From positions 668,228 to 700,227 of the forward strand of contig CAKUSQ010000001.1 of assembly GCA_934691225.1 (NCBI GenBank): 32,000 nt of DNA, read 5' to 3'. Origin of the DNA: an uncultured Opitutales bacterium. Its GTDB lineage: Bacteria; Verrucomicrobiota; Verrucomicrobiia; Opitutales; UBA9783. Each line of letters begins with the position of its first letter. Within the stretch, counting starts at the first letter, position 1. Below the pieces are notes generated by a model, which was given only the letters and a program-made list of their open reading frames with translations, did no database searches and was not told the origin of the DNA. Below, in pieces: positions 1-27,380 of the stretch. A program made the translations under genes and the position numbers.

Positions 1-1048
1 GAAAGCTTTTGTCGCGATTAACTTGAAAATCGTTGATACAGGTTTTGTTTTTTAATTCAGCTAAACGTTGTTTTAAAATGATTTCTATGAGTTCCCAAGC
101 AACGGATTCTTTGAGGTCATTTAAGATGAGATGAGAGCGAGGTGTCAAATATCGTTGCGCTTGTAAATAAAGTGTTGTTTCAGGTAATTCTTTATTGGAA
201 AAAATGCTAACTTCTAATTTGTCTTTAGGCGATGAAATAGGCCCAAAATCAGGATTAGATAATGTTAATGCATTATTTTTTTCTTTTTGTGGAGTAGCAA
301 ATGTAGCTTTAATGTGTTTTAATACATCACGTTTATTTAGGTCTCCTGTTACGATGATAGACATTCTGTGTGGTTTATACCATTGATTATAAAAATCAAA
401 AAAATGCTTGGATGTGAAACTATTTATAGTGTCTTCCACACCTATAATAAATCGTTTTGAAAGTAAGGAATCAGGATATAAAAATTTAGACATTGCTTTG
501 TAAGATCTGTAGAGAATGGAATCGTGTGTTCGCATTTCGGATAATATAACACCGCGTTCACGTTCAATTTCTTCCGGTAAAAATAAGCAACCGAAAGCTT
601 GATCCCATAAAACTTTCAGACCTTTAATAAGGTCGGCATTATCATTGTGAGGAAGGTCAATTTGGTAGCAGGTATAAAGGTAATGTGTAAAAGCATTAGT
701 GTCGTTACCAAACCCCATACCGTTATCTTGAAAGTAATGAATTAAAGTTCCAGGTTTGAAATTTTTGGTTCCATTGAATGTCATATGTTCAATAAAATGA
801 GCAATACCATCATTGGTCTCATTTTCCATGGCCGCACCTGCATTGACCATTAAGCGTAAACTGATAAAACCTTTGGGGGAAGCGTGAGGATAGATGTAGT
901 AATGCATACCATTAGGCAGTACTCCATGCGTTAATTCAGGTGCTTGTTTGAGGGGTGCATTCCATTCAGGTGATTTTTTACTAAAAAGCCCTGGCAAGCA
1001 GGTAAAAATGATGAAATAAAGTAGGATGTTTTTATAAATGCGTATCAT
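1..1048 (-). CDS. M16 (pitrilysin-family) zinc peptidase, secreted; 3' end runs off the window
   Basis: Hand translation of the minus strand from the ATG at 1048-1046 gives MIRIYKNILLYFIIFTCLPGLFSKK, which looks like a signal peptide. It continues to NDGIAHFIEHMTFNGTKNF, which carries the HxxEH inverted-zincin motif. The frame stays open to position 1. Its ATG overlaps the TGA of the upstream M16 gene (ATGA). It is absent from the ORF track because it has no stop codon in the window. Confidence 0.85.
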   Translation of the reverse strand, partial: MIRIYKNILLYFIIFTCLPGLFSKKSPEWNAPLKQAPELTHGVLPNGMHYYIYPHASPKGFISLRLMVNAGAAMENETNDGIAHFIEHMTFNGTKNFKPGTLIHYFQDNGMGFGNDTNAFTHYLYTCYQIDLPHNDNADLIKGLKVLWDQAFGCLFLPEEIERERGVILSEMRTHDSILYRSYKAMSKFLYPDSLLSKRFIIGVEDTINSFTSKHFFDFYNQWYKPHRMSIIVTGDLNKRDVLKHIKATFATPQKEKNNALTLSNPDFGPISSPKDKLEVSIFSNKELPETTLYLQAQRYLTPRSHLILNDLKESVAWELIEIILKQRLAELKNKTCINDFQVNRDKSF

Positions 1049-3657
1049 AAGTTACAAAGTTTAGGGGTTATGAGTAAAGTGCATGCGTTAGAGGGTGATA
1101 ACCATTGTCGGCAATTTTCAAAGAATTCATCTAAGGTTATAGAATTGATATGTTGTTCATAAGCATTCCATTGTTCTAGTGGTAAACCTAGAAGGCAATG
1201 ATAACCTACTTGAAAAGCTTTGCGTCCTATGGTTTGTAAGCGCAATTGATGGTTAACGTTTAAACAGGTTCGGCAAATTTCAAATTCTTGACGTGTAATT
1301 TTTTGATCTAATACGCGTTTAATGCATTTAAACATTTCCTGTTCAACCGTGTTTATAGCTTCCCTTTGTGTACCTGCAAATAAGCAAAACATACCTGTTT
1401 GCAGGCCTAACAATCGGGTGGCTCCAACTGTGTATGCAAGCCCTCGCTTTTCACGAACTTCTTCTACAAAAAAGCTGGATAATCCATTAAATAATTCCTC
1501 TAAAAATTCGCTTGCGTAAAAGTTTTTACCTATCATGCCATCGATAGGATACGCTTGAAAAACCATAGCTTGTTCTTTGTTCAGTTGCAAAGTTGAATGG
1601 GGTAGCGGTTTAAATGAAAGATTGTCTTTTAAAGGTAAAAAATCGCGGTTGTACTTCAATGCTTGGCACAAAGGACTTAAGTAGTTCGTGATTTCTTCTT
1701 GCGATAAAGAGGTAGAAACAGAAAGAATGCAGTTGTTTTTGCATACAAGTTGTTTGTAAAGTTGTATGCAGTCTTCAAGATTTATGTTCGGGATGCTAGA
1801 TTCGCAACCTAATTGTCCTATGCAATAGGGATGTTGCTGGAAAAATTGCTGGCGAATTTTTTGAAAACCTACATAGAATACATCATCTTGCATTTCTTGC
1901 AGTTCGGCTAATTGAGCATTTTTTTCAGTTGTAAATGTATCGGGTAAAAAAGCAGGTTCGGTAAGCGCATTTTTTAAAATATGACATGCAAGTTCAATAT
2001 CTTTTGATAGAACTTCAACCGATAAACCAAAGTGATTATTACCTGAAAAACTATTAAATTGCCCACCTATGCGTTCAATGGATTCGGCTATTTCTAACGT
2101 TGATTGGTGTTGAGTGTCTTTGGTTAGTAAGGTTGCTAACAATTGTGTTAATCCGCGCTTATCGTTGGTTTCATAGAGTGATCCAGCTGCAAAAAGTGCT
2201 TGAATATTTGTTTTAGGAAAATGATCGCAATGCTGTACAAGAACACGAACACCTTCAATCGTAATTTCTTGAATGCCTAATGAAACGGTTTTAGATGTAC
2301 GTTGAAAATGCTTGTCATTAGAACAGCCATAAGGATCTAAAGAGACATGCGTGCAAGAAACTTCTTTAAAATATTTACCAATAATACTTTTTACTGCATC
2401 CGGTGTTAAATTCCGTAATTCTTCTAAATAATGTTTTGTATAATTTTCATCGCCTAAACAGACGTTAGCCCATCCAATGTGATGCGCCTGACCTGAAACC
2501 GTTTTTTGTGTATCTAACTCAGAAATGATAGCTTGATTATAAGCTTTTTGAATGGTTTGTTCTGATATATGATCGTAAGATAACTTCGCTAAATTTGTTT
2601 GTAAATAAGACTCAACTTGAGCTTTTTTATGACTATCACAGGTATATTGTATCCAAAATAATCCTTGTCCGTCGGCCATCCAAGAAGAGGCATCAATGTT
2701 ATATATGATGTGCAATTCTTCACGAAGTTTTTGATATAATAGAGAACTTTCACCACTGCCTAACACACTTGCAAGTACTTGCAATTTAGCGCTATCTTTG
2801 TGACCAATCCCTGGGATTTTATACGCAATGGTACCGCGCGATAATTGATAATCTCCGTGGTCTTGAGCGTTTCGCTGTGCTAATTGAAAGGGTTCTTGTG
2901 GAATAAATATTGGGGCAACGCTTCTAGGCAGATAATTGCCTAGATAATGTTGTACTTTGTCTTTTACCTCTGAAAGCTCTAAATTGCCTGCAATAACCAA
3001 GGTCATGTTATTGATAGCGTAGCGTTCTTTCCAGTAAGCTAGTAAATCATCGCATGTTAATTTTTTAAATATGTTGCGAATGCCAATGATAGGATAATGG
3101 TAGGGGTGTTTTTGAAAGGCATTTTTGAAAAGAATTTGGCTTAAGCGATCATCTGGATCATCGTTGCACATGTCAATTTCTCGCAGGATAACATCGCGTT
3201 CCTTATTGAGTTCATTTTCATCAAAAATTGAACATTGAAGCATGTCACCTAAAATATCTAAACCCGTATCTAACGATTGCGTGCAACCATCATAGGTATA
3301 AACTGTCCTGTCAAATGAGGTATAAGCATTTATTTTTGCCCCTTGCGCTTGTGTTTCTTTGAAAATTTGACCATAGGTTCTTTTTTCAGTCCCTTTAAAC
3401 ACCATGTGTTCAACAAAATGAGAAATGCCGGATCCTAAAAATCGACCTTCATGAATGCTGCCTGTTTTAACCCACATTTGAAGTGCAAGCACATCCGTGT
3501 TTTGTACAGGAAGGAATAAAATAGATAGTCCATTATCAAGTTGAAAATGTATAGATTTTTGCGATAAAAAAGATATTTCTTCCTGCGAAACCATAGACAT
3601 TTTTATTATTGTTTTATAGGTTTGAGTTGTAAAGACTAAAATTGATAAATAGTTCAC
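1045..3657 (-). CDS. Two-unit M16 zinc peptidase (fused active and inactive halves)
   Basis: 870-aa ORF. The N-terminal half carries GISHFVEHMVFKGT (HxxEH) and a downstream REIDM-type Glu region. The second half repeats the M16 fold without HxxEH (LTQLLATLL). The start is more likely the ATG at 3600 (MSMVSQEE...) than the one at 3657. Confidence 0.9.
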   Translation of the reverse strand: MNYLSILVFTTQTYKTIIKMSMVSQEEISFLSQKSIHFQLDNGLSILFLPVQNTDVLALQMWVKTGSIHEGRFLGSGISHFVEHMVFKGTEKRTYGQIFKETQAQGAKINAYTSFDRTVYTYDGCTQSLDTGLDILGDMLQCSIFDENELNKERDVILREIDMCNDDPDDRLSQILFKNAFQKHPYHYPIIGIRNIFKKLTCDDLLAYWKERYAINNMTLVIAGNLELSEVKDKVQHYLGNYLPRSVAPIFIPQEPFQLAQRNAQDHGDYQLSRGTIAYKIPGIGHKDSAKLQVLASVLGSGESSLLYQKLREELHIIYNIDASSWMADGQGLFWIQYTCDSHKKAQVESYLQTNLAKLSYDHISEQTIQKAYNQAIISELDTQKTVSGQAHHIGWANVCLGDENYTKHYLEELRNLTPDAVKSIIGKYFKEVSCTHVSLDPYGCSNDKHFQRTSKTVSLGIQEITIEGVRVLVQHCDHFPKTNIQALFAAGSLYETNDKRGLTQLLATLLTKDTQHQSTLEIAESIERIGGQFNSFSGNNHFGLSVEVLSKDIELACHILKNALTEPAFLPDTFTTEKNAQLAELQEMQDDVFYVGFQKIRQQFFQQHPYCIGQLGCESSIPNINLEDCIQLYKQLVCKNNCILSVSTSLSQEEITNYLSPLCQALKYNRDFLPLKDNLSFKPLPHSTLQLNKEQAMVFQAYPIDGMIGKNFYASEFLEELFNGLSSFFVEEVREKRGLAYTVGATRLLGLQTGMFCLFAGTQREAINTVEQEMFKCIKRVLDQKITRQEFEICRTCLNVNHQLRLQTIGRKAFQVGYHCLLGLPLEQWNAYEQHINSITLDEFFENCRQWLSPSNACTLLITPKLCNL

Positions 3658-3794
3658 AGCAAATGCCTAGTTTTAGTAGAATGCTGAGGTTATGAACGAA
3701 TGCATTATTAAAATTGACATAATTTTTATTTTTGTCAAAATGTGTACCTATGTGGATCTCTAAGTGTTTCTGATGCAATTCTAGAATAATTAAT

Positions 3795-5189
3795 GTGAGG
3801 AGAATATTCATATTTTTTTTTGCAAAAGTAGCTGTATGTATGGCTATCATCGTAAGTTCGATTGGCTATGCTTATCCTAGGTTTTTTGAAACAAAATTAA
3901 CGGAAGATAAAGAAGTCGTATTGTTTAGGCCTTTTGTAGCTAGGTATAAATATAATTTGCATGGAAATTATCGTGAAGAAAATTATTTGCTGTATCCATT
4001 AGGTCGAGAGTATCGTCAGAAAGGCCATTTATACTGGAGTACTTTGTTGGGTTTGTTTAATTATGAACTCAGGGAAACCGATCGTAGGTTGCAAGAGGGG
4101 GCGTTTTATCCTTTTTATTTTTTTAAGAAGGGATTTAGTAAAGAAGCTGATTATGCTGCTATTTGGCCATTAGGAGGAACGGTTAAAAATTTTTTAGGTA
4201 AAGATCAATCCGATTGGTTTTTATGGCCGTTGTGGGTAAAAACAAAGAATAACGGAACAATTAATTACTGGTTTCCATGGCCATTTTTAAATAAATGTAC
4301 AGGAAATGCAGATGGTTTTGGATTTTGGCCATTGGGAGGACATTTTTTTCAAAAAGATGTGTATGATAAGCGTTATGTGCTTTGGCCTTTGTTTTATCAT
4401 CATGCGTATTTTCAGGATAACACAATTAAGAAAGGTTTTTTGCCATTTTATGCGTACGAATATAGTCCTAATGTTAAAGATTTATCCATTTTTTGGCCTA
4501 TTTGGGGGCATCGTTGGGAAAAAACACCGCGCTACGAAGAGCATCGTATTTTGTGGCCATTATGGGTTCAAGGACGAGGGGTAGAACGCAATGTGAATCG
4601 TTGGGCCCCTTTTTACACACATTCGGAAAATAAACGTTTAAAGCATGAAAAGACGTGGTATCTATGGCCTTTGATTAAACATCAACGTTGGGAAGAGCGT
4701 GGAGTTGATGTCCAACAAGAACAGTTTATGTACTTTATTTTTTGGCATCAGGAACAAAAAGATTGTAAAACGAAAAAATTTTTGGCAAGGAAAACACATT
4801 TTTGGCCGTTTTATAGTTATTGGGAGAATAATCAAGGCTGCAAACAATTACAAATGTTGAGTCCTTTTGAAGTTTTTTTTCAAGGTAATAAAGTGATTCA
4901 GGATGTTTATACACCTTTGTTTAGTTTGTATCGTTACAATGAAAATAGCTATGGTGTTGAACAGAGTTTTTTGTTCAATATGTTTCGTGAAAAAAGGACG
5001 ATGAATGATGAAGTAACAATGAATTTTAGTTTTTTGTTGGATTATAAAAATACGCAGCAAGAAAAATCAATTTCGTTATTGAAAGGTTTGTTTGAATATA
5101 AGAAAATTAACAATGAAAAATCCTTGAAATTATTTTGGATGAGATTGAAAAAAAATCAGACAAGCAAAAAGGATTGTAAAGTTTTATGA
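3795..5189 (+). CDS. Secreted repeat protein of unknown function with about 16 aromatic-Pro-Leu/Phe repeats (WPLW/WPLG/WPFY)
   Basis: 464-aa ORF with a GTG start and a signal-like N-terminus (MRRIFIFFFAKVAVCMAIIVSSIGYA). The motifs YPLG, YPFY, WPLG, WPLW, WPFL, WPLG, WPLF, LPFY, WPIW, WPLW, APFY, WPLI, WPFY, SPFE and TPLF recur every roughly 18-25 residues. Its TGA overlaps the mlaE ATG (ATGA at 5186-5189). Confidence 0.7.
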   Translation: MRRIFIFFFAKVAVCMAIIVSSIGYAYPRFFETKLTEDKEVVLFRPFVARYKYNLHGNYREENYLLYPLGREYRQKGHLYWSTLLGLFNYELRETDRRLQEGAFYPFYFFKKGFSKEADYAAIWPLGGTVKNFLGKDQSDWFLWPLWVKTKNNGTINYWFPWPFLNKCTGNADGFGFWPLGGHFFQKDVYDKRYVLWPLFYHHAYFQDNTIKKGFLPFYAYEYSPNVKDLSIFWPIWGHRWEKTPRYEEHRILWPLWVQGRGVERNVNRWAPFYTHSENKRLKHEKTWYLWPLIKHQRWEERGVDVQQEQFMYFIFWHQEQKDCKTKKFLARKTHFWPFYSYWENNQGCKQLQMLSPFEVFFQGNKVIQDVYTPLFSLYRYNENSYGVEQSFLFNMFREKRTMNDEVTMNFSFLLDYKNTQQEKSISLLKGLFEYKKINNEKSLKLFWMRLKKNQTSKKDCKVL

Positions 5190-5929
5190 GAATTTTAAAA
5201 GATTGGCAATATGCGTTTAGTTTGCTGGTGGGTTCCTTGAAAGAATTGAGGTACCTGATGCGTCAGCTGCCACGTTGCATTGCACATAGTTGCAATATTG
5301 GTTATAAAACATTACCGATTGTTGCCATTTTAAGTTTGTTTATGGGAGGAATTTTAGCCCTGCAAACCGGGTATAGTTTAAGTAAATTACCCGGAGCACA
5401 ATCGTTTTTGGGAAGCATTGTTGGATTATCTATGTGTCGAGAATTGGGGCCTTTAATGACGGCTTTTTTGTTAACCGGGCGCGTGGGATCAGCTATTACA
5501 GCAGAATTAGCTTCGATGTCCGTTTATCAAGAAATTGATGCATTACGAACGATGAATTTGTCGCCAGTTCGTTTATTGGTGATGCCACGATTGTTAGGAG
5601 GATTATTAATGATGCCATTTTTAACCATGTTTTCAAATGTTTTGGGATGGTTAGGTGGATGGCTAATTGTAAAAATGGTAGATATAATTTCCATTGATGG
5701 AAGCATTTATTGGCGCAGTTTGAAACAGTATGTGGATGTGGAAAGCATTTGTGATGGTTTGATAAAAGCTGAATCTTTTGCATTAACCATCATACTTATG
5801 AGTTGTTCAATCGGGCTCAGGACGCGTGGAGGGCCACGAGAGATAGGTGCTTCCGTAACTAGCACCTTGGTACAAACGATGGTAGCTATTTTGGTACTAG
5901 ATTACTTTTTAACCAATTTGCTTATTTAA
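5186..5929 (+). CDS. mlaE: MlaE-type ABC transporter permease
   Basis: 247-aa polytopic membrane protein. It has MlaE/YrbE-like segments (LPIVAILSLFMGGILALQ, MCRELGPLMTAFLLTGRVGSAITAELASM, EIDALRTMNLSPV) and lies immediately upstream of the cognate ATPase. Confidence 0.9.
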   Translation: MRILKDWQYAFSLLVGSLKELRYLMRQLPRCIAHSCNIGYKTLPIVAILSLFMGGILALQTGYSLSKLPGAQSFLGSIVGLSMCRELGPLMTAFLLTGRVGSAITAELASMSVYQEIDALRTMNLSPVRLLVMPRLLGGLLMMPFLTMFSNVLGWLGGWLIVKMVDIISIDGSIYWRSLKQYVDVESICDGLIKAESFALTIILMSCSIGLRTRGGPREIGASVTSTLVQTMVAILVLDYFLTNLLI

Positions 5930-5932
5930 ATT

Positions 5933-6718
5933 ATGTCTATTTTTAATTCGAAAACAAAAACAGCTGTTTCTATCAAAGTAGAAGAGGTAAGCAAAACCTT
6001 TGGTTCACATACGGTTTTAGAGAAATTAAATCTGTCGGTATCACCAGGTGAAGTTTTTGTTTTAATGGGACCAAGTGGTACAGGTAAAAGTGTTTTTTTA
6101 AAGTTGCTTTCAGGGTTGGATCAGCCTACTTCCGGTAAAATTGAAATCAATCATACGCCATTGAAAGAAGTTCGGGCGACACAAAAGTACGTATTAGGAC
6201 TTGTTTTTCAAGCAGGTGCCTTATTCAATTCGATGAATGTATTTGATAATTTGGCACTGTACTTTCGCGAGCATGCTCTATTTAGCGAAGCTGAAATAGA
6301 AAAACGTATTGGGCAAGTTTTGCATCTTTTAAACTTGAGGGATGCAGCCTTATTGATGCCAGCTGATTTGTCTGGAGGTATGAAAAAACGTGTAGCGTTG
6401 GCTCGTGGATTGCTTATGGAACCTGATGTTTTATTGTTTGATGAGCCTACTTCAGAACTTGATCCGATGACGGCCGCTTCCATCATAGAATTAATTGGCT
6501 ATGTCAATAAGAATTTAGGCATTACTACCGTTATTGCTTCACACGATATTGCTTTAGCCAGAAGTATAGGGCACCACATTGGCGTTTTACAGAATGGTAA
6601 AATTGAGGAGATTTATACCCCAGAAACGCTTATACAATCCAGCAATGTTTTTGTTAAGAATTTTTTAAATCCAACCGTTAATATAGAACATCCTAAATTT
6701 GTATCTTTTTTATCATGA
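5933..6718 (+). CDS. mlaF: MlaF-type ABC transporter ATP-binding protein
   Basis: Walker A GPSGTGKS, ABC signature LSGGMKKR, Walker B LLFDEPTSELD and H-loop SHD. Its stop overlaps the start of the MCE gene. Confidence 0.92.
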   Translation: MSIFNSKTKTAVSIKVEEVSKTFGSHTVLEKLNLSVSPGEVFVLMGPSGTGKSVFLKLLSGLDQPTSGKIEINHTPLKEVRATQKYVLGLVFQAGALFNSMNVFDNLALYFREHALFSEAEIEKRIGQVLHLLNLRDAALLMPADLSGGMKKRVALARGLLMEPDVLLFDEPTSELDPMTAASIIELIGYVNKNLGITTVIASHDIALARSIGHHIGVLQNGKIEEIYTPETLIQSSNVFVKNFLNPTVNIEHPKFVSFLS

Positions 6719-7707
6719 AAACAAAGTATGAAAGTATTCGCGTAATTCTGTTTGCCGTATTTGGGTTATTCCTAATGTATGTTGTTTATTCAGCGTTGAA
6801 TAACTTATCTGTTTCGCGACATGACAGTTACAATATTAAAGCACTTTTTACCGATTTAAAACAATTGCAAATCGGCGATGATGTTAGGATTGCGGGTGTT
6901 CGTGTAGGAAGCGTTACCCATACTTATCTTAATAAGGGTTTGGCTGTAGCTGTATTGAGCATAGAAAAAAAATACGCTATACCTGAAGATTCTGTCGCTA
7001 CTATTTTAATGGCTGGATTGTTGGGAGCGAATTATATTTCTATTGTTCCAGGAATCTCAACAAATATGATGGATGAATCAGGTTTTTTAGAAACGCAAAA
7101 AGTTTCGGATGTTTCTTCAGTGATTCAAAAATTTAGTTCTATCGGTGATCGATTGAATCGAATTTTGTCAGGATTTGATGGAAGCGATGAAGGTGATGCC
7201 TCAGGAAGGCCTAATTTGTTTCAGGAATTGGGTGATTTCTTCCACAATAATAAAGATAAATTAGAAAAAATTGTGGACAATATTTCAGAGATTACCGGAA
7301 AGATTTCAGAAGGGCAGGGGACTTTGGGCCGACTTATCAATGAGGATCAAGCTTACAATGATTTGTTAGATACCATGCAGTCTATAAAAACAGCTGCACT
7401 TAAGGTGGATTCTATATTGAAAAATTTTGATGATATTTCCAAAAACATAAAAGATGGTGACGGATTGCTGTGCAAATTAATTTCAGACGAAAAAACAGCG
7501 CAATCCTTTGAAGAAATCTTAAACAATATTAAGTCGTTTTCAAATAAGTTAAATAGTGAAAATAGCACTTTGGGACGTATCATTTCAAATGATGATTTGT
7601 ATAAGCAGGCAGAAGCAACTTTAGGAAAAGTCGAAAAAGCTGTGGATAGCGTTTCAAATTCAGGCCCTATCACTGCTGTTGGAGCCGCTGCAAGTGCATT
7701 ATTTTAA
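6715..7707 (+). CDS. mlaD: MlaD-like MCE-domain substrate-binding protein with a long helical C-terminal extension
   Basis: N-terminal TM anchor (VILFAVFGLFLMYVVY) and an MCE core (GDDVRIAGVRVGSV). The C-terminus has three copies of a TLGRLI(N/S)xDxxY-like motif, which is typical of extended MCE proteins. Confidence 0.85.
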   Translation: MKTKYESIRVILFAVFGLFLMYVVYSALNNLSVSRHDSYNIKALFTDLKQLQIGDDVRIAGVRVGSVTHTYLNKGLAVAVLSIEKKYAIPEDSVATILMAGLLGANYISIVPGISTNMMDESGFLETQKVSDVSSVIQKFSSIGDRLNRILSGFDGSDEGDASGRPNLFQELGDFFHNNKDKLEKIVDNISEITGKISEGQGTLGRLINEDQAYNDLLDTMQSIKTAALKVDSILKNFDDISKNIKDGDGLLCKLISDEKTAQSFEEILNNIKSFSNKLNSENSTLGRIISNDDLYKQAEATLGKVEKAVDSVSNSGPITAVGAAASALF

Positions 7708-7714
7708 TACAAAG

Positions 7715-8884
7715 ATGCATTTTAATTTAACTAAATCTTCTTTTGAAAAATGTTGTAAGTATTATGAAGAGATAGCAGAGGTAGAAAAACGTTTTGATCG
7801 TATCCAAGCACAAAATTTGCATCCATTGGATAAAATTTATATCCTTTTGCAAACATGTAAATTAGGTACACTTAATTTTTCACATTTGGCACGTTGTGGT
7901 TTCATTGCTAGTTCGTTTTTAAAATCATTTGTAACAAAAGGTATTATTTCTGAGGAAGAAAAGACGGCACTTATAAATAATATTCAAACGATTACAGGAC
8001 AATTTTTTGAAAAAACGCAAGAAGCTATAATGGGTAATATTTCAAAAGAAGATTGCATTCAAACCTATGGCCATTTGCGTCCTGGTACGTATGATATTAC
8101 TTCCCCAACTTACCGTTCAGATCCAGATAAATATTTATTTGCTAATACTTCCGTAAAGGAAAAATCTAAAACAGCTAAAACGGTATTTGGTAGCACTAAA
8201 TTGGAATCAAGTTTAAAAGAATTGTTTGATATTTCTTTGGATGATTTTAAGAAATTTTTATCACAAGCTATTGCAGGACGAGAGTATTCTAAGTTTGTTT
8301 TTACACGTTATGTTTCACTTGTGTTAGATCTTATTAAAGAGATGGGTCAGTCTTACGGTTTTAGTGCGGACGACATGTCTCATTTGCCTGTCACTGTATT
8401 TGAAGATGTTAGAAATGGGTTATATTCTGTAAAAGATGTAAAAAATTTGTTTAAATCTATCATTGAACCAGGTAAAGAGTACGATCGAGTTATACAAAGT
8501 ATAGAATTGCCACCATTGATAAAGCAAACAGAGGATTTTTATTCATTTTTTGTTCCAAAAACATTGCCTAATTTTATTGGGGATAAGTGTATAGAAACGG
8601 AATTGATTTATTTAAAAAATTCAATGCATACAGATGGAGTTTGCTTAAAAAATAAGATTGTTTTAATTGAAAAAGCAGATCCAGGTTTTGATTGGATTTT
8701 TAATTACGGAATTGCTGGACTTATTACAGCTTATGGGGGTCCTAATTCTCATATGGCGATTCGAGCAGCTGAATTTCATTTGCCTGCTAGTATTGGTGTG
8801 GGGTCATCATTGTTCGATAAGTTAAAAACTGCACAATTTGTTCAATTAGACTGTTCAGCTCATAGGCTTAATGTTATTCGGTGA
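7715..8884 (+). CDS. PEP-utilising-enzyme mobile (phosphohistidine swivel) domain protein; resembles the C-terminal half of PpsA/PPDK/Cj1418-type kinases and has no ATP-grasp half
   Basis: The C-terminus carries GGPNSHMAIRAAEFHLPASIGV, the PEP-utilisers His signature. The upstream segment YGHLRPGTYDITSP resembles the linker region of PPDK_N-containing enzymes. The ATG at 7715 lies just after the mlaD stop. The track's 7679 start would overlap mlaD. Confidence 0.7.
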   Translation: MHFNLTKSSFEKCCKYYEEIAEVEKRFDRIQAQNLHPLDKIYILLQTCKLGTLNFSHLARCGFIASSFLKSFVTKGIISEEEKTALINNIQTITGQFFEKTQEAIMGNISKEDCIQTYGHLRPGTYDITSPTYRSDPDKYLFANTSVKEKSKTAKTVFGSTKLESSLKELFDISLDDFKKFLSQAIAGREYSKFVFTRYVSLVLDLIKEMGQSYGFSADDMSHLPVTVFEDVRNGLYSVKDVKNLFKSIIEPGKEYDRVIQSIELPPLIKQTEDFYSFFVPKTLPNFIGDKCIETELIYLKNSMHTDGVCLKNKIVLIEKADPGFDWIFNYGIAGLITAYGGPNSHMAIRAAEFHLPASIGVGSSLFDKLKTAQFVQLDCSAHRLNVIR

Positions 8885-8888
8885 TATT

Positions 8889-9485
8889 ATGTTAAAAGTT
8901 GGTATTACTCAACGTGTTGATTACATTGAATCCATAGGAGAAACGCGTGATGTTTTAGACCAGCGTTGGGTAGAACTACTGAAAAATAATGGGATAATTT
9001 TGATCCCTATACCTAATAAGTGTTTTGTTCAAAGCTTTATTGATGTGGTTAAGTTGAATGGAATTATTGTAAGTGGTGGAAATGATCATGCATCTCGTTT
9101 AGCTTGTGAAACGGATTGCGTTGATTACTGTTTAAAACATCAACTGCCTTTATTAGGTGTGTGTCATGGGATGCAGTTTATAGGACAATTTTTTGGTTCC
9201 CATTTGGTACGTATTGAGGAGCATGTTGGAAATTGTCATGATGTAAATATAAGAGATAATCGTTATGGAATTCCAAGAGGTAATTTTAAAGTTAACTCTT
9301 TTCATAATTTTACATTGGATAAGGTACCGAGTGTGTTTTTTGTTTTGGCAACCGATAACGCAGGACATTGTGAAGCTATGTTTCACAAAAATTTACCAGT
9401 AGTAACCTTTATGTGGCATCCTGAGCGTCCACCATTTTTGAATTGGTTTAATCATTTTATAAAGAATTTTTATGAAGAATACTAA
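8889..9485 (+). CDS. Class-I glutamine amidotransferase / peptidase C26 (gamma-glutamyl hydrolase type)
   Basis: Nucleophile elbow LLGVCHGMQF and a C-terminal catalytic His-Glu (FMWHPER). It is about 200 aa, begins MLKVGITQR and starts 5 nt after the upstream stop. Confidence 0.8.
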   Translation: MLKVGITQRVDYIESIGETRDVLDQRWVELLKNNGIILIPIPNKCFVQSFIDVVKLNGIIVSGGNDHASRLACETDCVDYCLKHQLPLLGVCHGMQFIGQFFGSHLVRIEEHVGNCHDVNIRDNRYGIPRGNFKVNSFHNFTLDKVPSVFFVLATDNAGHCEAMFHKNLPVVTFMWHPERPPFLNWFNHFIKNFYEEY

Positions 9486-10212
9486 GATTTTTGTTCTTTG
9501 TGCCGGTGAAGGGAAACGTTTGCGTCCGTATACAGAAGATAAACCTAAGTGTATGGTACCTTATAAAAACAAACCATTATTGCAGTATCAGTTAGAGGTT
9601 TTTGAAAAATTTCATTTAAATGATATCACGCTTATCGGCGGGTACCACTATGAAGCTTTACCGAAAGACTTGTACCCTGTGGTTGTTAATCATGATTTTT
9701 CAACTACCAACATGCTTTTTAGCTTGTTTTGTGCCGAAAATGATATGCCAGAAGACCACGATATAATTATAAGCTATGGAGATATTATTTACAATGCTTC
9801 TGTTTTAGAATCTTTATTAAAAGCTAACGATGCTTGCAGTATAATTACGGATATTGATTGGCGAACTTATTGGAATAATCGTATGGAAGATCCACTGAAA
9901 GATGCTGAAACATTTCGTTGGAATGTAGAAACGCGTCGTATTTTCGAGTTAGGTAAGAAGCCAAAAACACTAGATGATATTCAAGGGCAGTATATCGGTT
10001 TATTTAAAATTGCAGCTCCATTTGTTAAAAAATTCAAGCAAATGTACGAAACATTTAAACGCACCTATCCGAACTATAAAGATGCGTACATGACAGATTT
10101 TTTACAGTTTCTCATTAATAAAGATTTCCCAACGTTTGGTGTTCCTATACATAATAAATGGGCAGAATTTGATACCGTTAATGATTTAAATCTAGATATT
10201 CATTGGTTATGA
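9472..10212 (+). CDS. LicC/Cj1416-like nucleotidyl (cytidylyl) transferase
   Basis: N-terminal signature LCAGEGKRLRPYTEDKPKCMV (GxGxRLxPxTxxxPK) in a single-domain protein of about 246 aa. Its start overlaps the amidotransferase stop by 14 nt. Confidence 0.85.
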   Translation: MKNTKIFVLCAGEGKRLRPYTEDKPKCMVPYKNKPLLQYQLEVFEKFHLNDITLIGGYHYEALPKDLYPVVVNHDFSTTNMLFSLFCAENDMPEDHDIIISYGDIIYNASVLESLLKANDACSIITDIDWRTYWNNRMEDPLKDAETFRWNVETRRIFELGKKPKTLDDIQGQYIGLFKIAAPFVKKFKQMYETFKRTYPNYKDAYMTDFLQFLINKDFPTFGVPIHNKWAEFDTVNDLNLDIHWL

Positions 10213-11522
10213 AAGATTTTTTAAAAAATTCGTTGTTTAACTGTTTATTACCTTGGGCATTTATTTGTTTTCGGTATAATCAATGTCATGGATATTTTGC
10301 TGAAAGCTACGAAGTTTTATTCGCTTTTTTAGGACTTATATGGCTTGTTAACATTTTTTTGTCATTTATAAAGTTACCGATTAACTTTATTGTATCTTTG
10401 TGGGTTGTCCTTATTTTACCTAATTTGTCTGGTAGCTTAATAAAGGATATTATTTATAAGATTTTTTTCGTTTTAGGGTGTACTTCTGTTATAAAGAAAT
10501 CATCTACAAATCCGATTAAAATTTTACTTTCAATTATTATTGGATTTAACCTTTTTCAAATTGTTCAAAGAGATTATTGTGCAAGAAAAACAGCTAATAA
10601 ATTGATAAAAAATGTTTCTATAAATAAAAATTTTTCATGCAATGAAAACATTTATTGGATTGTCTGCGATGCTTACACAAGTTTGGATGGTTTGAAGGAT
10701 TATTACCACTTTGATAATACAAAATTTTATCAAGATTTAAACGATTTAGGATTCTTAACACCTGATGGACAAGTGCCATATAAGAAAGTAAATCAATTTC
10801 CAACGTTAAAAGCACTAAATTTTTATACCAATTTTAATCATTTTGATGTTACAAAAGAAAATTCTTTGACATTACATTATGGGTTAAAATATAACATTTT
10901 TTTTAATACTTTAGTTGCAAAAGGTTATTCATTGTGGGCAACTTATTCTAGAGCCCCGTTTTTATACAAATTACAAAATGTGAGTTCGTTAGGGAACAAA
11001 GGTGTTTCAGTAGCTTTGCAATTTTTTTATCATTGTTTTAACCATAATAAGTTTTTAGCAAAAATAGTTTCGAAAAAACTTAATGAGCAACTGTATATTC
11101 ACCAAAAGGATGTTTTTAAGTTTTTACGTTATAATTTTAAAACAACTAATAAATGTTTTTATTATATTCATATAGATTCTCCACATGCTCCTTTTGTTAG
11201 AGGTCAAAACAATGAATTTGTAAATGATCAAAAAAGTGTCGTTTGGGGAGAAAATGAGGTTGGAACAAATGCATATAAATTTAAAGATTACCGAAAAGGA
11301 TATATAAAACAATTACAGGGATTAAATAAGAAAGTTTTGGAATTGATTAAGTTGATTTGCCAAAAGGATCCTCATGGAGTTATCATTTTGCAAGGTGATC
11401 ATGGAACATTTACAACCGATGATTTACGAGAACATCAGTCATTTTTGTTTGCTATAAAAACAAATATTGCGTACAAATATCTTCAAACAGAACAATTTTT
11501 CAAACAGTTTATTTATGAATAG
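10209..11522 (+). CDS. Membrane-anchored alkaline-phosphatase-superfamily (sulfatase/NPP-like) phosphotransferase or phosphodiesterase
   Basis: Several N-terminal TM helices are followed by IYWIVCDAYTS (metal-binding Asp), QFPTLKAL (candidate Thr nucleophile, NPP-like FPT), YYIHIDSPHAPF and ILQGDHGTF (DHG motif). It has an ATGA overlap with the upstream gene. Confidence 0.65.
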   Translation: MKDFLKNSLFNCLLPWAFICFRYNQCHGYFAESYEVLFAFLGLIWLVNIFLSFIKLPINFIVSLWVVLILPNLSGSLIKDIIYKIFFVLGCTSVIKKSSTNPIKILLSIIIGFNLFQIVQRDYCARKTANKLIKNVSINKNFSCNENIYWIVCDAYTSLDGLKDYYHFDNTKFYQDLNDLGFLTPDGQVPYKKVNQFPTLKALNFYTNFNHFDVTKENSLTLHYGLKYNIFFNTLVAKGYSLWATYSRAPFLYKLQNVSSLGNKGVSVALQFFYHCFNHNKFLAKIVSKKLNEQLYIHQKDVFKFLRYNFKTTNKCFYYIHIDSPHAPFVRGQNNEFVNDQKSVVWGENEVGTNAYKFKDYRKGYIKQLQGLNKKVLELIKLICQKDPHGVIILQGDHGTFTTDDLREHQSFLFAIKTNIAYKYLQTEQFFKQFIYE

Positions 11523-12735
11523 TATGAGAATTATGATTTTTATATTTATTTTGTTTCTTGTAATAGAACATTTTTTAAAAAAATATTTAATTAAAACAGG
11601 GTTGTTCCTTAAAGAATTTCCTAACATTGATAAGAGGATAATAAATCGTTATAAGACATTTGATAAAGTATTGGGTTGGAAACCTATACCTACTCTAAAT
11701 CATCCGGACAATACAGGATCGTACATAGGTATAAATTCAGGAAGTTTTTTTTCTATAAATGAATTCGGTAGTAGATTTTTTAAAAATTCTTTTTCTTCAA
11801 AATACATAGCGACATTTGGAGATTCTTTTTGTATGTGTAGGGAAGTAAACGATGATTGTACATTTCAATATTTTTTATCACAACAAACTAATTCTTTCGT
11901 TTTTAATTATGGAGTTGGTAATTATGGATTAGATCAAGCACTTTTAAGATTCGAAACAACTAAATTGCCTCCTTCGGTAAAACATGTGATAATGGTAATA
12001 ACCCCTTGGACAATAGAGAGAATTATCAGTATTTGGAAACACTACTGCGAACCAGGTAATTTGTTAGCTGCAAAACCAAGATTTGTATTGGAAAATAAAA
12101 AATTAAAGTTAATCGATAATTTTATTAAGAATACTAGTGATTTTTTAAATTTAAAAAAATATAAGGATTTTTTACATAACTATGACGGTAATTATTGTTT
12201 TTTTTATCAACAATTAAAAACATTTCCAAAAACAGCATTAGGATATTTATTTTCCAATCCAGATGCTATAAAATATATTTTAGCTGTAAGTAAAATAAAA
12301 AGCATAAAACTTGAAGAAAAAAATAGAAAGGAAGCTATAGGAAGCTTTTTAAAGCAATCAGAACCATTTTTATTAAAAAAGTTTTATCAAGAAAATCAAT
12401 ATTTACAATCCTTATATGATAAACAAAAGGAGTTATTAAAAAATATATTGAAAAGGTTTGTAGAGTCTTGTGTTAACGATGATAAGGTACCGTATTTAGT
12501 ATTTTTACCATCATATTCGCATGTAAAATTTATAAAACAAGGAAATCCTTTGTATAGAAATATAGTAAATCCCATATGTGAAGGGATTGGATTGAATTTT
12601 ATAGATGGATTTAATTTTTGGAAAACGTTTGATGAAGACGAATTAAAAAATTGTTACATAGATACTTATGGCCATCATTCAAAAATTGGGAATAAGTATA
12701 TAGCTGATTTGATTTATAAAACGTGGTTTATTTAA
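11515..12735 (+). CDS. Membrane-anchored GDS(L)/SGNH-like esterase or acyltransferase (tentative)
   Basis: N-terminal TM helix (MRIMIFIFILFLVIEHF), ATFGDSFCMC (block I GDS), YGVGNYGLDQ (Gly/Asn blocks) and C-terminal IDTYGHHS (Asp/His block). It overlaps the upstream stop by 8 nt. Confidence 0.5.
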   Translation: MNSMRIMIFIFILFLVIEHFLKKYLIKTGLFLKEFPNIDKRIINRYKTFDKVLGWKPIPTLNHPDNTGSYIGINSGSFFSINEFGSRFFKNSFSSKYIATFGDSFCMCREVNDDCTFQYFLSQQTNSFVFNYGVGNYGLDQALLRFETTKLPPSVKHVIMVITPWTIERIISIWKHYCEPGNLLAAKPRFVLENKKLKLIDNFIKNTSDFLNLKKYKDFLHNYDGNYCFFYQQLKTFPKTALGYLFSNPDAIKYILAVSKIKSIKLEEKNRKEAIGSFLKQSEPFLLKKFYQENQYLQSLYDKQKELLKNILKRFVESCVNDDKVPYLVFLPSYSHVKFIKQGNPLYRNIVNPICEGIGLNFIDGFNFWKTFDEDELKNCYIDTYGHHSKIGNKYIADLIYKTWFI

Positions 12736-12789
12736 AACTTTTATATCAATAAAGTAACCAGAATTTTCTTTGATTAAAGAAATTGTAAT

Positions 12790-13771
12790 TAACTTGTGTC
12801 TATCTTGCATTTATACGAGCGATAGAATCATCAGTTAAAAGACCGGAAGCCAAAAGTTGAGCAATTTTCATCTCCAATAATGGTTCTAGCGACGGATAAA
12901 TACTCAGATAATCTTTGATTATCGTTTTGTGCATATGGATATGAAATTGCCATGCAGAAAAAAAGCTATTGTACAACTATACCCAAATACACTTTCAAAG
13001 CAAGGAATGTTGAGTGAAGGGGGCATGCCGCGTGAAACCTGGCTGTTTTTCTTGCTAACTCCATAACTTATCTGGTTTGTAATTCTCCATTTTTATAATT
13101 TGTAAGGGACATTTAGACGTGCCTAAATTCTTGACTATTGAACCTGGAATGTTTAAAACAGAAAAGTTAACGTGTGGTTGGTAGTTTTTTATTAACATTG
13201 TAGCTAAGTTATCCATGTAAAAATTGAATAATAAAGCCACCTGTATAGCTTTGTAGTTGAGGTTCCAGTAAAGCTCCAGATAGAGGATTAGGACGCTTTA
13301 AAATGAAAACCTTTTTTTTAAATGTAAGCAGGTTTCTAAAGTATAACGCATACAAGTTATGTATGTGTAACATCAAACACTTACATCCACTAGATCTATT
13401 ACTAAAGTATCAATGTTGTCAAATATAGCAGATTCTATTTTTTTTGTATTATTTTTATATAAAGAATTTTTATAAGTGTCATCTTTTACAGCTTCTCCAG
13501 CTTTTGCACAGCCCGTAAGTCTATGTTCTGGAGAAAAAAAGCAGCTTACGCGACTGAATAGATTTCCTTGTTAATCTTGATTGGCATCTGCAAAAATATC
13601 ACTTGTAGGAATATTTTTGGAACTTGTAGCGGACACATGTGTTAAAACACCTATTTTTCTCCCACAGTTTTTTAAGTCATTAAAATTACGCTCTATGAGG
13701 CAATTTACCTCCAATTTCAGTGGCTCTGCATATAAAACTGATGTGAGCGTAAAACAGAAAATTATTACCAT
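12790..13771 (-). pseudogene. DUF1343 / NamZ(YbbC)-like exo-muramidase-family pseudogene
   Basis: Hand translation gives a signal peptide plus KIGVLTHVSATS, an in-frame TAA, and then FFSPEHRLTGCAKAGEAV...DNIDTLVIDLVDVSV. A TGA follows, then CYTYITCM. After a frameshift the reading is VFILKRPNPLSGALLEPQL...GGFIIQFLHG followed by a stop. These match the family blocks FxPEHG, DxQDVGxRxYTY and LDRPNP. Confidence 0.6.
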
Positions 13772-14025
13772 GACTGATTTTGCTTGTAATTTATGCGATG
13801 TTATTTTGCAAAAATGGTAACTGCCGAAAATATCGATGAATATGAACAGCGGATGTTGGAAAATTTAAAAACATTTGAAATAAAAGAACATTACCCTCAT
13901 ATAGATTCTTTAGAGGATTTAATTCAGCAAAATGCCAAAATAAGTAAGTACTAGATCAAGTAAGAAGTTAGATCAAACTGCTTATTACACCCTTACAATT
14001 CTCGAGAACAAATTTTCACTGATTG

Positions 14026-14047
14026 GAATGAACATATAAGTTCATTC
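14026..14047 (-). terminator. Hairpin downstream of the 14059-14577 gene (no clear U-tract)
   Basis: GAATGAAC-ATATAA-GTTCATTC, a perfect 8-bp stem with a 6-nt loop, lies 12 nt beyond the stop codon. Confidence 0.3.
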
Positions 14048-14058
14048 TGCAATAAAAG

Positions 14059-17598: not shown

Positions 17599-18024
17599 TT
17601 AGCGAAAGCTTATAATAATTTCTCCTCCTGCCACGAGTGTTTCGTTTTTATAAGCAGCGACTTTTGCTTTACAAAAATCTTCATATAAACCTAAACAAGT
17701 TGCTTCTGTTGTTAAAACAACACCTGGTTTAATCTTTTCAAAAAATTTTACATTACATTTTGCCATATATCCAAGGTCGGATTTAAGGACTTTTTCAGTT
17801 TTTGAATAAAGCATAATTCCAATCGTTTGTGCCATCATTTCTATTATTATATTACCTGGCAAAACCGGATTATTAGGAAAATGCCCTTGAAAGAACCATT
17901 CGTTATAAGTAATCGCCTTAGATGCTTTTGCAAACTTTAAATAGTCACACGAGATGATCTTATCTATAAATAAAAATGGATATCTCTGAGGAAGACACTG
18001 AATAACATCTAAACTATCCATCAA
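17599..18024 (-). CDS. FabZ-like 3-hydroxyacyl-ACP dehydratase (hotdog fold)
   Basis: LPQRYPFLFIDKI ... WFFQGHFPNNPVLPGNIIIEMMAQ matches the FabZ signature, including the catalytic His and Glu. It overlaps the ACP stop. Confidence 0.85.
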   Translation of the reverse strand: MMDSLDVIQCLPQRYPFLFIDKIISCDYLKFAKASKAITYNEWFFQGHFPNNPVLPGNIIIEMMAQTIGIMLYSKTEKVLKSDLGYMAKCNVKFFEKIKPGVVLTTEATCLGLYEDFCKAKVAAYKNETLVAGGEIIISFR

Positions 18025-18283
18025 TTTTATTATCTATCAAGTAATCTACAATATTATCTATCGTTCTCAACTTCCAATAATCTTCAATTTTAATGTGGAA
18101 AGTTTCTTCAATTTGTGAGACCAATTCCACAACATCTATGGACTCCAATCCTAATCCATCAGAAAATAATGAAACGTCTGTTTTTATTTCATCTTTTCTA
18201 AAACCATCCGGGTCAATAATTTCCCGAACTATATTAGTAACAGCCTCTTTGTAATGCTGCTTTAATTCCAATTTATTCATCAT
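18014..18283 (-). CDS. Acyl carrier protein
   Basis: 89-aa ORF with the phosphopantetheine attachment motif DGLGLESIDVVELV. Confidence 0.85.
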   Translation of the reverse strand: MMNKLELKQHYKEAVTNIVREIIDPDGFRKDEIKTDVSLFSDGLGLESIDVVELVSQIEETFHIKIEDYWKLRTIDNIVDYLIDNKIDG

Positions 18284-18469
18284 ATCTTAATAAAGAACAA
18301 AACAAACTTGCATCTTAAGTAAATCATATTAAAATAAATTGCAATACATTTTTAATATTTTGGCATAAATTTACACTACCCCTTTTATTAATTTTCCTAA
18401 AGAATACTATAAATCTTGTAATTTTATTGTGTAAAAATATTTCCCAACAACCCAATAACGTTTTTAATC

Positions 18470-27376: not shown

Positions 27377-27380
27377 CCTT

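Follow-up and report, generated by a model that had tools for sequence, protein, structure and literature searches.

Directly downstream of mlaEFD, the 32,000-nucleotide stretch analysed here (the window), from an uncultured Opitutales bacterium, carries overlapping genes for a kinase-like protein of half the expected size (K'), a glutamine-amidotransferase-type hydrolase (H) and a LicC-like cytidylyltransferase (C), followed by two membrane-protein genes (D and E). The families of K', H and C are also found, in this order, among the Campylobacter jejuni O-methyl-phosphoramidate (MeOPN) genes cj1418-cj1417-cj1416-cj1415 (with cj1419-cj1422), and in that organism four enzymes turn glutamine, ATP and CTP into CDP-phosphoramidate 3'-phosphate (PMC11800397). 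The locus raises the question of whether the short kinase marks a variant route to a P-N or other phospho-substituent on an envelope glycan or lipid, as originally predicted, or a pathway that has been lost. We consider the window copy very probably to be a deletion-truncated remnant of a phosphoramidate operon that is most likely inactive, with H, C, D and E still intact.

Gene content and family assignments

ORF positions and Pfam matches bear out the three overlap-coupled genes at 7715-10212 (table 1). K' starts 7 nt past the mlaD stop codon, the K'/H and H/C overlaps are 14 nt each, and D overlaps C with a start at either 10203 or 10209. Rfam and tRNA scans of the window gave no matches, and promoter and terminator scans found sites no more numerous than in shuffled sequence.

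Table 1. Features of the mlaD-E region in window coordinates
Feature	Position	Strand	Description
mlaD	6715..7707	+	Last gene of mlaEFD; Pfam MlaD, E 1.5e-16
Deletion junction	7706..7712		3781-bp deletion; imperfect microhomology AAT[G/A]CAA
K'	7715..8884	+	389 aa; 5'-truncated glutamine-kinase-like gene remnant
H	8871..9485	+	204 aa; class-I GATase / peptidase C26 hydrolase, Cj1417-like
C	9472..10212	+	246 aa; LicC-like cytidylyltransferase
D	10209..11522	+	Polytopic membrane protein; putative sulfatase/alkaline-phosphatase-superfamily domain
E	11515..12735	+	Membrane-anchored protein, family unassigned; GDSF and DxxH motifs

K' comprises a helical substrate-binding domain (aa 1-275) and a phosphohistidine swivel domain (aa 286-389) matching PF00391 PEP-utilizers (residues 313-381, E 5e-12). 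The swivel domain contains the conserved GGPNSH motif, with His346 encoded at about nt 8750-8752, and this histidine, YGHLRPGTYD and GREY.KF are invariant over 61 homologues. Its best NCBIfam model is the Cj1418-type NF004508 (PRK05849), of which K' covers only positions 410-788 of 789 with a score of 395.1 bits, below the curated cut-off of 501, versus 886.6 bits over model positions 5-788 for the intact, ATP-grasp-containing K of a conspecific genome (P0517). The central substrate-binding and His swivel domains of a Cj1418-type kinase are thus present and the ATP-grasp domain is absent; K' has no PPDK_N match in Pfam, and a search of the whole window found no trace of the N-terminal half of K. 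The AlphaFold2 (AF2) model of K' (pLDDT 89.5) finds its best fold matches in rifampin phosphotransferase (RPH-Lm, PDB 5fbs/5hv1/5fbu; E 4e-8 to 3e-6, TMq up to 0.61), aligning with the last two domains of that enzyme, where a His swivel domain likewise comes after a helical substrate-binding domain. Identity to K' is 14-16%, however, the substrates differ, and RPH has the ATP-grasp domain that K' lacks.

H matches GATase (E 3.5e-18) and Peptidase_C26 (E 2.9e-15) in Pfam and has the motifs GVCHG and WHPE. Among NCBIfam models it scores highest with NF045546 (gamma-glutamyl-CDP-amidate hydrolase; 115.5 bits), with the next family at 62.9; this is well short of the 250-bit cut-off, as is the Pelagibacteraceae orthologue (123 bits), and the likeness of K' and H to the C. 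jejuni enzymes is one to family models, not to C. jejuni sequences. C matches NTP_transf_3 (E 1e-11) with a GxGxR motif (AGEGKRLRP). Its best solved relative by sequence is LicC (1jyk), and the closest folds to its AF2 model (pLDDT 96.6) are LicC, a CTP:phosphocholine cytidylyltransferase, and PntC, a phosphonate cytidylyltransferase (TM 0.75-0.80). These are of the same fold class at 17-19% identity, whereas C belongs to a K-H-C operon; the combination of LicC-like fold, GxGxR motif and adjoining kinase and hydrolase genes is what would be expected of a Cj1416-type enzyme, and homologues at 43-61% identity are labelled 'L-glutamine-phosphate cytidylyltransferase' by JGI. PDB searches with K', H and C matched no C. 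jejuni protein. With K' and H best matched by the Cj1418- and Cj1417-type models and C LicC-like, the proposed Cj1418/Cj1417/Cj1416 order holds at family level.

D has no direct Pfam match, although 3060 relatives were found; PF00884 (Sulfatase) was matched by 32 of 40 D relatives (best E 8e-13), and a profile of the relatives reaches PDB sulfatases at E 1e-4. The motifs D...HxxPHxP...GDHG are invariant, with D154, H321, P325, H326, P328 and D397-H398-G399 conserved. By this transitive homology D can be assigned to the sulfatase/alkaline-phosphatase superfamily as a predicted membrane enzyme, in agreement with the original prediction for the gene after the trio. It follows C in nine related loci, and a 703-aa Sulfatase gene adjoins K in Pseudomonas. 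No Pfam or PDB relatives were found for E, for which an SGNH-like fold is only a guess; its orthologues stand after C or D in four other loci (L013, L020, L021, L031).

A deletion in the kinase gene

A conspecific genome (GCA_944389485.1, ~96% nucleotide identity) has the same M16-mlaEFD flanks and a K gene of 990 aa, to whose C-terminal 387 residues (P0517 604-990) K' is 98% identical. Comparison by blastn of the intact allele (L031) with the window resolved the boundaries of the difference to the single-base level: L031 300-8011 corresponds to window 1-7712 and L031 11793-17055 to window 7706-12965, and L031 8012-11792 is missing. The absent 3781 bp carries a methyltransferase gene, a TagF-like phosphotransferase gene and the first ~600 codons of K, encoding an NTP-transferase-like domain and the ATP-grasp domain, leaving the C-terminal 39% of K in the window (61% gone). 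A hairpin 3' of the mlaD stop codon in the intact allele (dG -10.7, z -4.5) is also missing from the window, and the loss of two bases (GC) between 7721 and 7722 brings the ATG at 7715 in frame for K'.

The half-size kinase is therefore the scar of a strain-specific deletion and not a new enzyme architecture. The original observation of a short kinase without an ATP-grasp half was correct, as Pfam and the NF004508 alignment indicate, but its reading as the mark of a variant route does not survive the full-length gene at the same locus in the conspecific and the clean deletion that separates the two alleles: the first gene of the trio is a truncated remnant. This removes the half-size kinase as a lead for this window. 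Compared with the intact allele, K' has a dN/dS of 0.083; this gives no sign of long neutral decay and suggests that the deletion is recent.

It is exceedingly improbable that faulty assembly or a chimeric contig produced the short gene. The sequence is of metagenomic origin, and frameshift errors in long-read assemblies do account for some of the short K calls at other loci (L010-L012), but the same junction recurs in many independent contigs and samples (ENA, Logan and NCBI; the longest contig 847 kb), with 99.75-100% identity to the window. The K' protein was found on 16 contigs (NCBI, ENA, Logan), versus one or two for each other allele, and as the most frequently assembled form the deletion allele has persisted and spread. 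The identical H sequence occurs on 23 contigs, and 19 of these places were shown or grouped with the same neighbour genes.

Other lesions of K in the same species are a +1C frameshift (P0513/P0511) and that frameshift together with an 853-bp deletion (L029/L030); L029 also has the identical deletion junction, and its E gene is broken. A related species carries an internal K-H-C deletion in two independent assemblies (L007/L015). Three other origins for a short K were considered and rejected. Short K genes on long contigs (P0120, P0071, P0015), candidates for a natural split-gene kinase, are frameshifted long-read calls with the N-half ORF directly upstream. A search with a relative's N-half, for a separate gene elsewhere, matched the same locus in conspecific strains and no separate gene. 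Lastly, the truncated forms (the window, L008 and L009) are not monophyletic, contrary to a shared ancestral truncation.

The cassette in related and distant genomes

In line with the original prediction, the trio is syntenic in relatives. Among 13 gut Opitutales/Puniceicoccales genomes examined, 12 have the K-H-C order intact, the exception being the internally deleted L015, and the order extends to Pelagibacteraceae and Pseudomonas; K and H were also seen with a TagF-like gene on a Vibrio plasmid. K matches across its ATP-grasp half in all 13 related genomes and is full length in 12 (frameshifted in L022), again excepting L015. In the intact layout, a methyltransferase gene and a TagF-like CDP-alcohol phosphotransferase gene, divergently transcribed, precede K, H, C, D and E. 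Both are conserved upstream of K in related loci; linkage to K extends to Pseudomonas and Vibrio for the TagF-like gene, and Pseudomonas also has a K-linked methyltransferase gene.

Intact K (~990 aa) comprises NTP-transferase-like, ATP-grasp, helical (predicted glutamine-binding) and His swivel domains, the first being an extra N-terminal domain of ~200 aa in the Opitutales clade. This extension was considered as the missing Cj1415 kinase and rejected on proving NTP_transf_3-like. No APS-kinase-like gene was found: Pfam showed none within 10 kb of K in the loci of the window's species, and tblastn with a single domain from contig L011 as query gave no match in the window or the related Opitutales/Puniceicoccales loci. 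The unrelated contig L011 itself encodes an APS_kinase-K fusion.

A cassette of methyltransferase, sulfatase-family, K (~1000 aa), H, C and TagF-like genes is found in Pseudomonas, Halomonas, Marinobacter, Vibrio and gut Opitutales, with a gene order that varies between phyla and generic public annotation ('PEP-utilizing enzyme', 'choline kinase', 'glutamine kinase'). The absence of a Cj1415-type kinase, correctly noted in the original prediction, and the linked sulfatase-family gene are thus traits of a widespread cassette variant and are not particular to this genome. The conspecific intact allele has the same gene set as the Pseudomonas/Vibrio-type cassette, whereas the window keeps H, C and D and is without the methyltransferase gene, the TagF-like gene and 61% of K.

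As with the C. jejuni MeOPN genes, a methyltransferase gene and a gene for a candidate phospho-group transferase adjoin the intact Opitutales allele. The allele differs from those genes in having no Cj1415-type kinase near any Opitutales copy, in the NTP-transferase-like domain fused to full-length K, and in its linked TagF-like and sulfatase-superfamily membrane genes; the window kinase differs further in lacking the ATP-grasp half, through the deletion. A phosphoramidate-related cassette of distinct make-up is thus conserved in gut Verrucomicrobiota and many Proteobacteria, and its product appears so far uncharacterised. We know of no genes assigned to the synthesis of the unmethylated LPS phosphoramidates of Xanthomonas and Shewanella. 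These modifications have been described from both genera (PMC3907429).

Fate of the pathway in the window strain

We propose that the C. jejuni MeOPN genes have a related cassette in a human-gut Opitutales species, the source of the window. In the strain represented by the window, a microhomology-flanked deletion has taken out the methyltransferase, the transferase and K codons 1 to about 600, fusing the K' remnant to the end of mlaD. As its ATP-grasp domain is missing, K' is predicted to be incapable of being charged from ATP and to have no Cj1418-type kinase activity. Without pyrophosphorylation from ATP no phosphoglutamine would be formed, leaving H and C without substrate; the likely transferase would be missing as well, and the modification would not be made, although K'-H-C-D-E is probably still transcribed by read-through from mlaEFD. 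Against the composition of a complete MeOPN-type pathway, the window lacks both transferase and methyltransferase, which lie inside the lost 3781 bp. The predicted variant route through a half-size kinase is further undermined by this loss of the TagF-like transferase.

Three features speak against inactivity: the reading frames of H, C, D and E are unbroken, with dN/dS values of 0.12-0.29 (clearly <1); K' has a clean 389-codon frame whose ATG was created by the 2-bp deletion; and the deletion allele predominates among the assembled contigs. The intact state of H, C, D and E may be explained by a recent loss. Accelerated evolution of K', H or C was considered and rejected; in relative-rate and dN/dS comparisons K' showed no increase, and any increase for H, C and D was mild and based on small counts.

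H, C, D and E might instead act without K, for example with C activating another phospho-alcohol and D transferring it to an envelope glycan or lipid, which would explain their survival after the loss of K; we regard this as unlikely. All four genes are intact (dN/dS <0.3), the fold of C is nearest to LicC and PntC, activators of small phospho- or phosphono-alcohols, and the superfamily of D includes phospho-group transferases. On the other hand, the best family of H is specific for gamma-glutamyl-CDP-amidate, with no obvious role in the absence of K, and in different phyla the cassette and K are inherited together. Furthermore, H, C and D show dN/dS values 1.3- to 2-fold above those in lineages with intact K (on small counts), and E is broken in the L029 allele.

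More doubtful still is that K' functions as a stand-alone substrate-binding and His-carrier module charged in trans by the ATP-grasp domain of a PPDK/PpsA protein or by PTS enzyme I, making K'-H-C-D-E a working variant. Consistent with such a module, K' is an intact ORF retaining all family-invariant residues, including the GGPNSH histidine, its dN/dS is low, its start lies close behind mlaD, and in two metagenomic contigs (L008, L009) K is cut near the same domain boundary and adjoins H and C. Against this, the truncation arose by a deletion at strain level, the conspecific has the gene at full length, all 13 related genomes have its ATP-grasp half, and the same event took the conserved TagF-like transferase and methyltransferase genes. 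The lack of monophyly among truncated forms argues against long-term retention of a half-gene, sister alleles wreck K by other routes, and we know of no precedent in the K family for one PEP-utiliser protein charging another in trans. We give marginally less credence again to the full scheme of a deletion allele that remains active, with K' phosphorylated in trans, expression by mlaEFD read-through and D, in place of the lost TagF-like enzyme, transferring phosphoramidate or a related phospho-substituent to the envelope. If K' were charged in trans, it would represent a natural split of a three-domain swivelling kinase.

Within one gut species, the first gene exists in an intact form and in at least three forms that were broken independently, and in a related species the central part of the operon is gone, a record also in keeping with an inactive remnant. 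Such a pattern resembles repeated selection for turning off a surface decoration. The MeOPN of C. jejuni is subject to phase variation and acts as a receptor for phages (PMC3417653). Should the organism ever be cultured, the natural K alleles would provide a possible comparison set.

A deletion reaching into the glutamine-kinase-like gene

Five genes with overlapping or abutting ends follow mlaEFD in the window (table below): K', a 5'-truncated glutamine-kinase-like gene; H, a Cj1417-like hydrolase; C, a LicC-like cytidylyltransferase; D, a membrane protein of the sulfatase/alkaline-phosphatase superfamily; and E, a membrane-anchored protein. The original prediction compared the first three with Campylobacter jejuni Cj1418 (L-glutamine kinase), Cj1417 (gamma-glutamyl-CDP-amidate hydrolase) and Cj1416 (CTP:phosphoglutamine cytidylyltransferase). 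Its description of the trio and their families agrees with the open reading frames and with the Pfam, NCBIfam and LicC matches, and its homology call was right. K' matches NF004508 (PRK05849, which we take to be the model that includes Cj1418) at 395 bits, below the cut-off of 501 and over model positions 410-788 of 789 only; several K' homologs carry the JGI name "glutamine kinase". For H, the gamma-glutamyl-CDP-amidate hydrolase model NF045546 is by far the best (115.5 bits, below the cut-off of 250), followed by GMP synthase subunit A (62.9 bits). No specific NCBIfam model matched C, whose best solved relative, both by sequence and by fold, is LicC; the only link suggesting a phosphoglutamine cytidylyltransferase is the JGI name of homologs at 43-61% identity ("L-glutamine-phosphate cytidylyltransferase") together with conserved synteny. 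None of the PDB matches of these three proteins was from C. jejuni.

Features of the window, with dN/dS between the window and the intact allele and, for comparison, from lineages with intact K (the full-length form of K')
Feature	Position	Strand	Length (aa)	Pfam match or description	dN/dS, window versus intact allele	dN/dS, intact-K lineages
mlaE-mlaF-mlaD	5186-7707	+		directly upstream of the five-gene run
K' (K)	7715-8884	+	389	PEP-utiliser mobile domain alone, residues 313-381	0.083	0.07-0.095
H	8871-9485	+	204	GATase, Peptidase_C26	0.29	0.12-0.18
C	9472-10212	+	246	NTP_transf_3	0.19	0.07-0.18
D	10209-11522	+	437	no Pfam match	0.23	0.15
E	11515-12735	+	406	no Pfam match	0.12
ORF-poor region	12736-14058			1.3 kb without a long ORF
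Acyl-carrier protein and dehydratase pair	17599-18300	-		FabA/ApeP/ApeI-like dehydratase
Dehydrogenase-family gene	18470-19699	-		UDP-glucose/GDP-mannose dehydrogenase family
PI-PLC protein	26249-27535	-	428	PI-PLC X domain
Dehydrogenase fragment	31732-31989			inverted, at the window end

The half-size kinase had been read as a possible natural form without an ATP-grasp half; it is instead a strain-specific deletion scar. The 990-residue protein P0517, from conspecific assembly GCA_944389485.1 (L031), shares the 90%-identity cluster of K', has the same flanks, and matches NF004508 at 886.6 bits over positions 5-788. K' is 98% identical (379/387) to its residues 604-990. L031 300-8011 corresponds to window 1-7712 (96.7% DNA identity) and L031 11793-17055 to window 7706-12965 (96.0%), and the 3781 bp between these blocks are absent from the window. 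The missing segment encodes a class-I methyltransferase, a PF04464 (TagF-like) CDP-glycerol-type phosphotransferase and approximately the first 600 codons of K, so the deletion that shortened K also took out a probable transferase. An imperfect 7-bp repeat (AATGCAA/AATACAA) marks the junction immediately after the mlaD stop; ten bases downstream of it, the loss of two more bases (GC) puts an ATG in frame with K'. Homology to full-length relatives begins exactly at this ATG (7715), and no sequence resembling the N-terminal half of K occurs anywhere in the 32-kb window.

Full-length K proteins in relatives have four parts, namely an NTP_transf_3-like domain of ∼200 residues, a PPDK_N-type ATP-grasp domain, a helical domain and a His swivel. 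The confident AlphaFold model of K' (pLDDT 89.5, pTM 0.80, 61-sequence alignment) comprises an all-helical domain (residues 1-275) and an alpha/beta swivel domain (286-389). This helical and swivel fold is shared with rifampin phosphotransferase, the best PDB match (E 4e-8 to 3e-6, TMq up to 0.61), but the shorter K' covers only part of those structures (TMt 0.21-0.36). In PEP-utilising swivelling enzymes, Cj1418 likewise, it is the ATP-grasp domain that uses ATP to charge the histidine; lacking this domain, K' should be inert as a kinase. Residues invariant in the family, His346 of GGPNSH among them, are still in place, and charging in trans is conceivable, though we regard it as highly improbable.

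Surviving genes and further broken alleles

The window locus is a degenerate form of the cassette, and its copy of the pathway is very probably inactive. H, C, D and E are all full length against their orthologs. For the flanking genes orf449, mlaE, mlaF and mlaD, dN/dS of the window against the intact allele was 0.03-0.11; with counts of 10-30 substitutions, the ratios for the surviving genes suggest at most mild relaxation, and recent loss would be the simplest reading. The mlaD stop of the intact allele is followed by a stable hairpin (dG -10.7 kcal/mol, z -4.5). With this hairpin deleted in the window, K'-H-C-D-E are probably transcribed by read-through from mlaEFD; promoter and terminator consensus scans were uninformative. 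It is unlikely, though less so than charging in trans, that the surviving genes do something else without a working K.

Lesions in the cassette are not confined to this allele. P0131, recovered with 600 N-terminal residues of a relative as query, lies on contigs L029 and L030, two independent assemblies of the same species with the flanks of the window (two M16 peptidases, a 449-aa ORF and mlaEFD). Here the N-terminal half of K is kept; an extra C (+1C) shifts the frame near codon 645, and most of the K' region has been lost in a deletion of 853 bp whose junction shows GCAC microhomology. E is split. Two further proteins of this species (P0513 and P0511) carry the frameshift alone. In a related Opitutales species (L007 and L015, independent assemblies, 99% identical), the segment from mid-K to mid-C is lost, and the join (about 6000-6050 in L007) adjoins an integrase-like gene (Arm-DNA-bind_3). 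L008 (3287-5260) and L009 (43-1518) also have a K cut close to the domain boundary of the window truncation, with an unrelated N-terminus joined in frame, a 5'-3' exonuclease-like domain in L008 and a membrane segment in L009. H follows in both; C is complete in L009, and L008 ends 36 codons into it. These truncated K forms are not monophyletic with that of the window; either further independent lesions or chimeric assembly may account for them. Among the alleles, the deletion allele of the window has been assembled most often (on 16 contigs, versus one or two per other allele). The intact cassette type undergoes repeated loss in gut Verrucomicrobiota.

The intact cassette and its predicted pathway

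A 410-kb human-gut metagenome scaffold contains the window sequence at 100% identity, and the same H sequence occurs on 23 contigs ("MERR22", Hadza_..._Nepal sample sets and other runs), with neighboring genes alike, shown or by grouping, at 19 of these places. Scanning species-representative genomes with a chimeric full-length query recovered 13 MAGs of Opitutales/Puniceicoccales (Verrucomicrobiota), which to judge by their isolate names come from human (Hadza), yak rumen and other animal-gut samples, and three Pelagibacteraceae genomes. The K match covers the ATP-grasp half in all 13 MAGs and the whole query in 12, the exception being L015 with its internal deletion; 11 of the 12 have a single K ORF of 919-1012 residues and the other (L022) is frameshifted. 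The predicted synteny was borne out: H and C come after K in 12/13 MAGs, with D and/or E next in most, and K-H-C also occurs in Pelagibacteraceae, indicating a conserved operon and not a chance juxtaposition. K proteins of ∼1000 residues, with GAGKSKQF in place of GxGxR in the N-terminal NTP_transf_3-like domain (e.g., L020 9404-10003; L031 10001-10600; P0121-P0239), are common in Pseudomonas, Halomonas, Marinobacter and Marinomonas, are seen in Vibrio too, and have only generic public annotation.

In nearly all Opitutales loci the methyltransferase and TagF-like genes are found upstream of K, and in two distant GC-rich contigs they adjoin it. A Pseudomonas locus reads methyltransferase - Sulfatase (703 aa) - K (1018 aa) - H - C - Glyphos_transf, and a Vibrio alfacsensis plasmid carries K, H and, after an unlisted gap, a "CDP-glycerol glycerophosphotransferase family protein" within a glycosyltransferase cluster. 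D, which has four or five N-terminal hydrophobic segments and 3060 relatives in a whole-library search, belongs to the alkaline-phosphatase superfamily because 32/40 aligned relatives match PF00884 (Sulfatase) and the family profile reaches PDB sulfatases (E 1e-4) over the HxxPHxP and GDHG region, the metal-ligand Asp being invariant. The original assignment of D to this superfamily is therefore supported; its periplasm-facing orientation is presumed.

In C. jejuni, Cj1415-Cj1418 jointly convert glutamine, ATP and CTP to CDP-phosphoramidate 3'-phosphate, loss of Cj1421 or Cj1422 abolishes MeOPN decoration, and Cj1419 and Cj1420 still have no assigned function (PMC11800397). Xanthomonas and Shewanella LPS bear unmethylated phosphoramidates (PMC3907429). 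The Opitutales/Pseudomonas cassette differs from the MeOPN genes in lacking a nearby gene for the APS-kinase-like Cj1415 and in its linked alkaline-phosphatase-superfamily gene. As originally noted for the window, no APS-kinase-like gene lies near K in the loci with Pfam lists (those of the window species and Pseudomonas), and tblastn with one APS-kinase domain found nothing in the other Opitutales loci. Both differences are thus real and proper to a widespread cassette type. It is plausible that in the intact cassette K, C and H would make CDP-amidate and that the TagF-like enzyme would transfer the phospho-group; this family uses CDP-activated donors with no 3'-phosphate on them. On the GC-rich metagenome contig L011 (6272-8044), K bears an N-terminal APS_kinase domain and so joins Cj1415-like and Cj1418-like parts in one protein; fragments of H and C and a methyltransferase come after it.

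Other features of the window

Within 10000-13000, G+C is 0.26-0.27 in D/E, clearly below the 0.33-0.35 of K'/H/C. The adjoining ORF-poor region had no match in Rfam and tRNA scans, and 12966-13573 has no counterpart in conspecific L031. The acyl-carrier protein and dehydratase pair (L001 18729-19413) has the cassette on one side and, on the other, a sugar-modification cluster at 21-25.5 kb (DegT, methyltransferase and split transketolase). An in-frame stop (..NALNDQ*KSAKG..) interrupts the dehydrogenase-family gene, whose Pfam match starts at position 28 of the NAD-binding-domain profile; the gene is probably another glycan-gene pseudogene; the fragment at the window end is its paralog, 84% identical. 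The PI-PLC X domain protein is unexpected for a gut Verrucomicrobiota genome.
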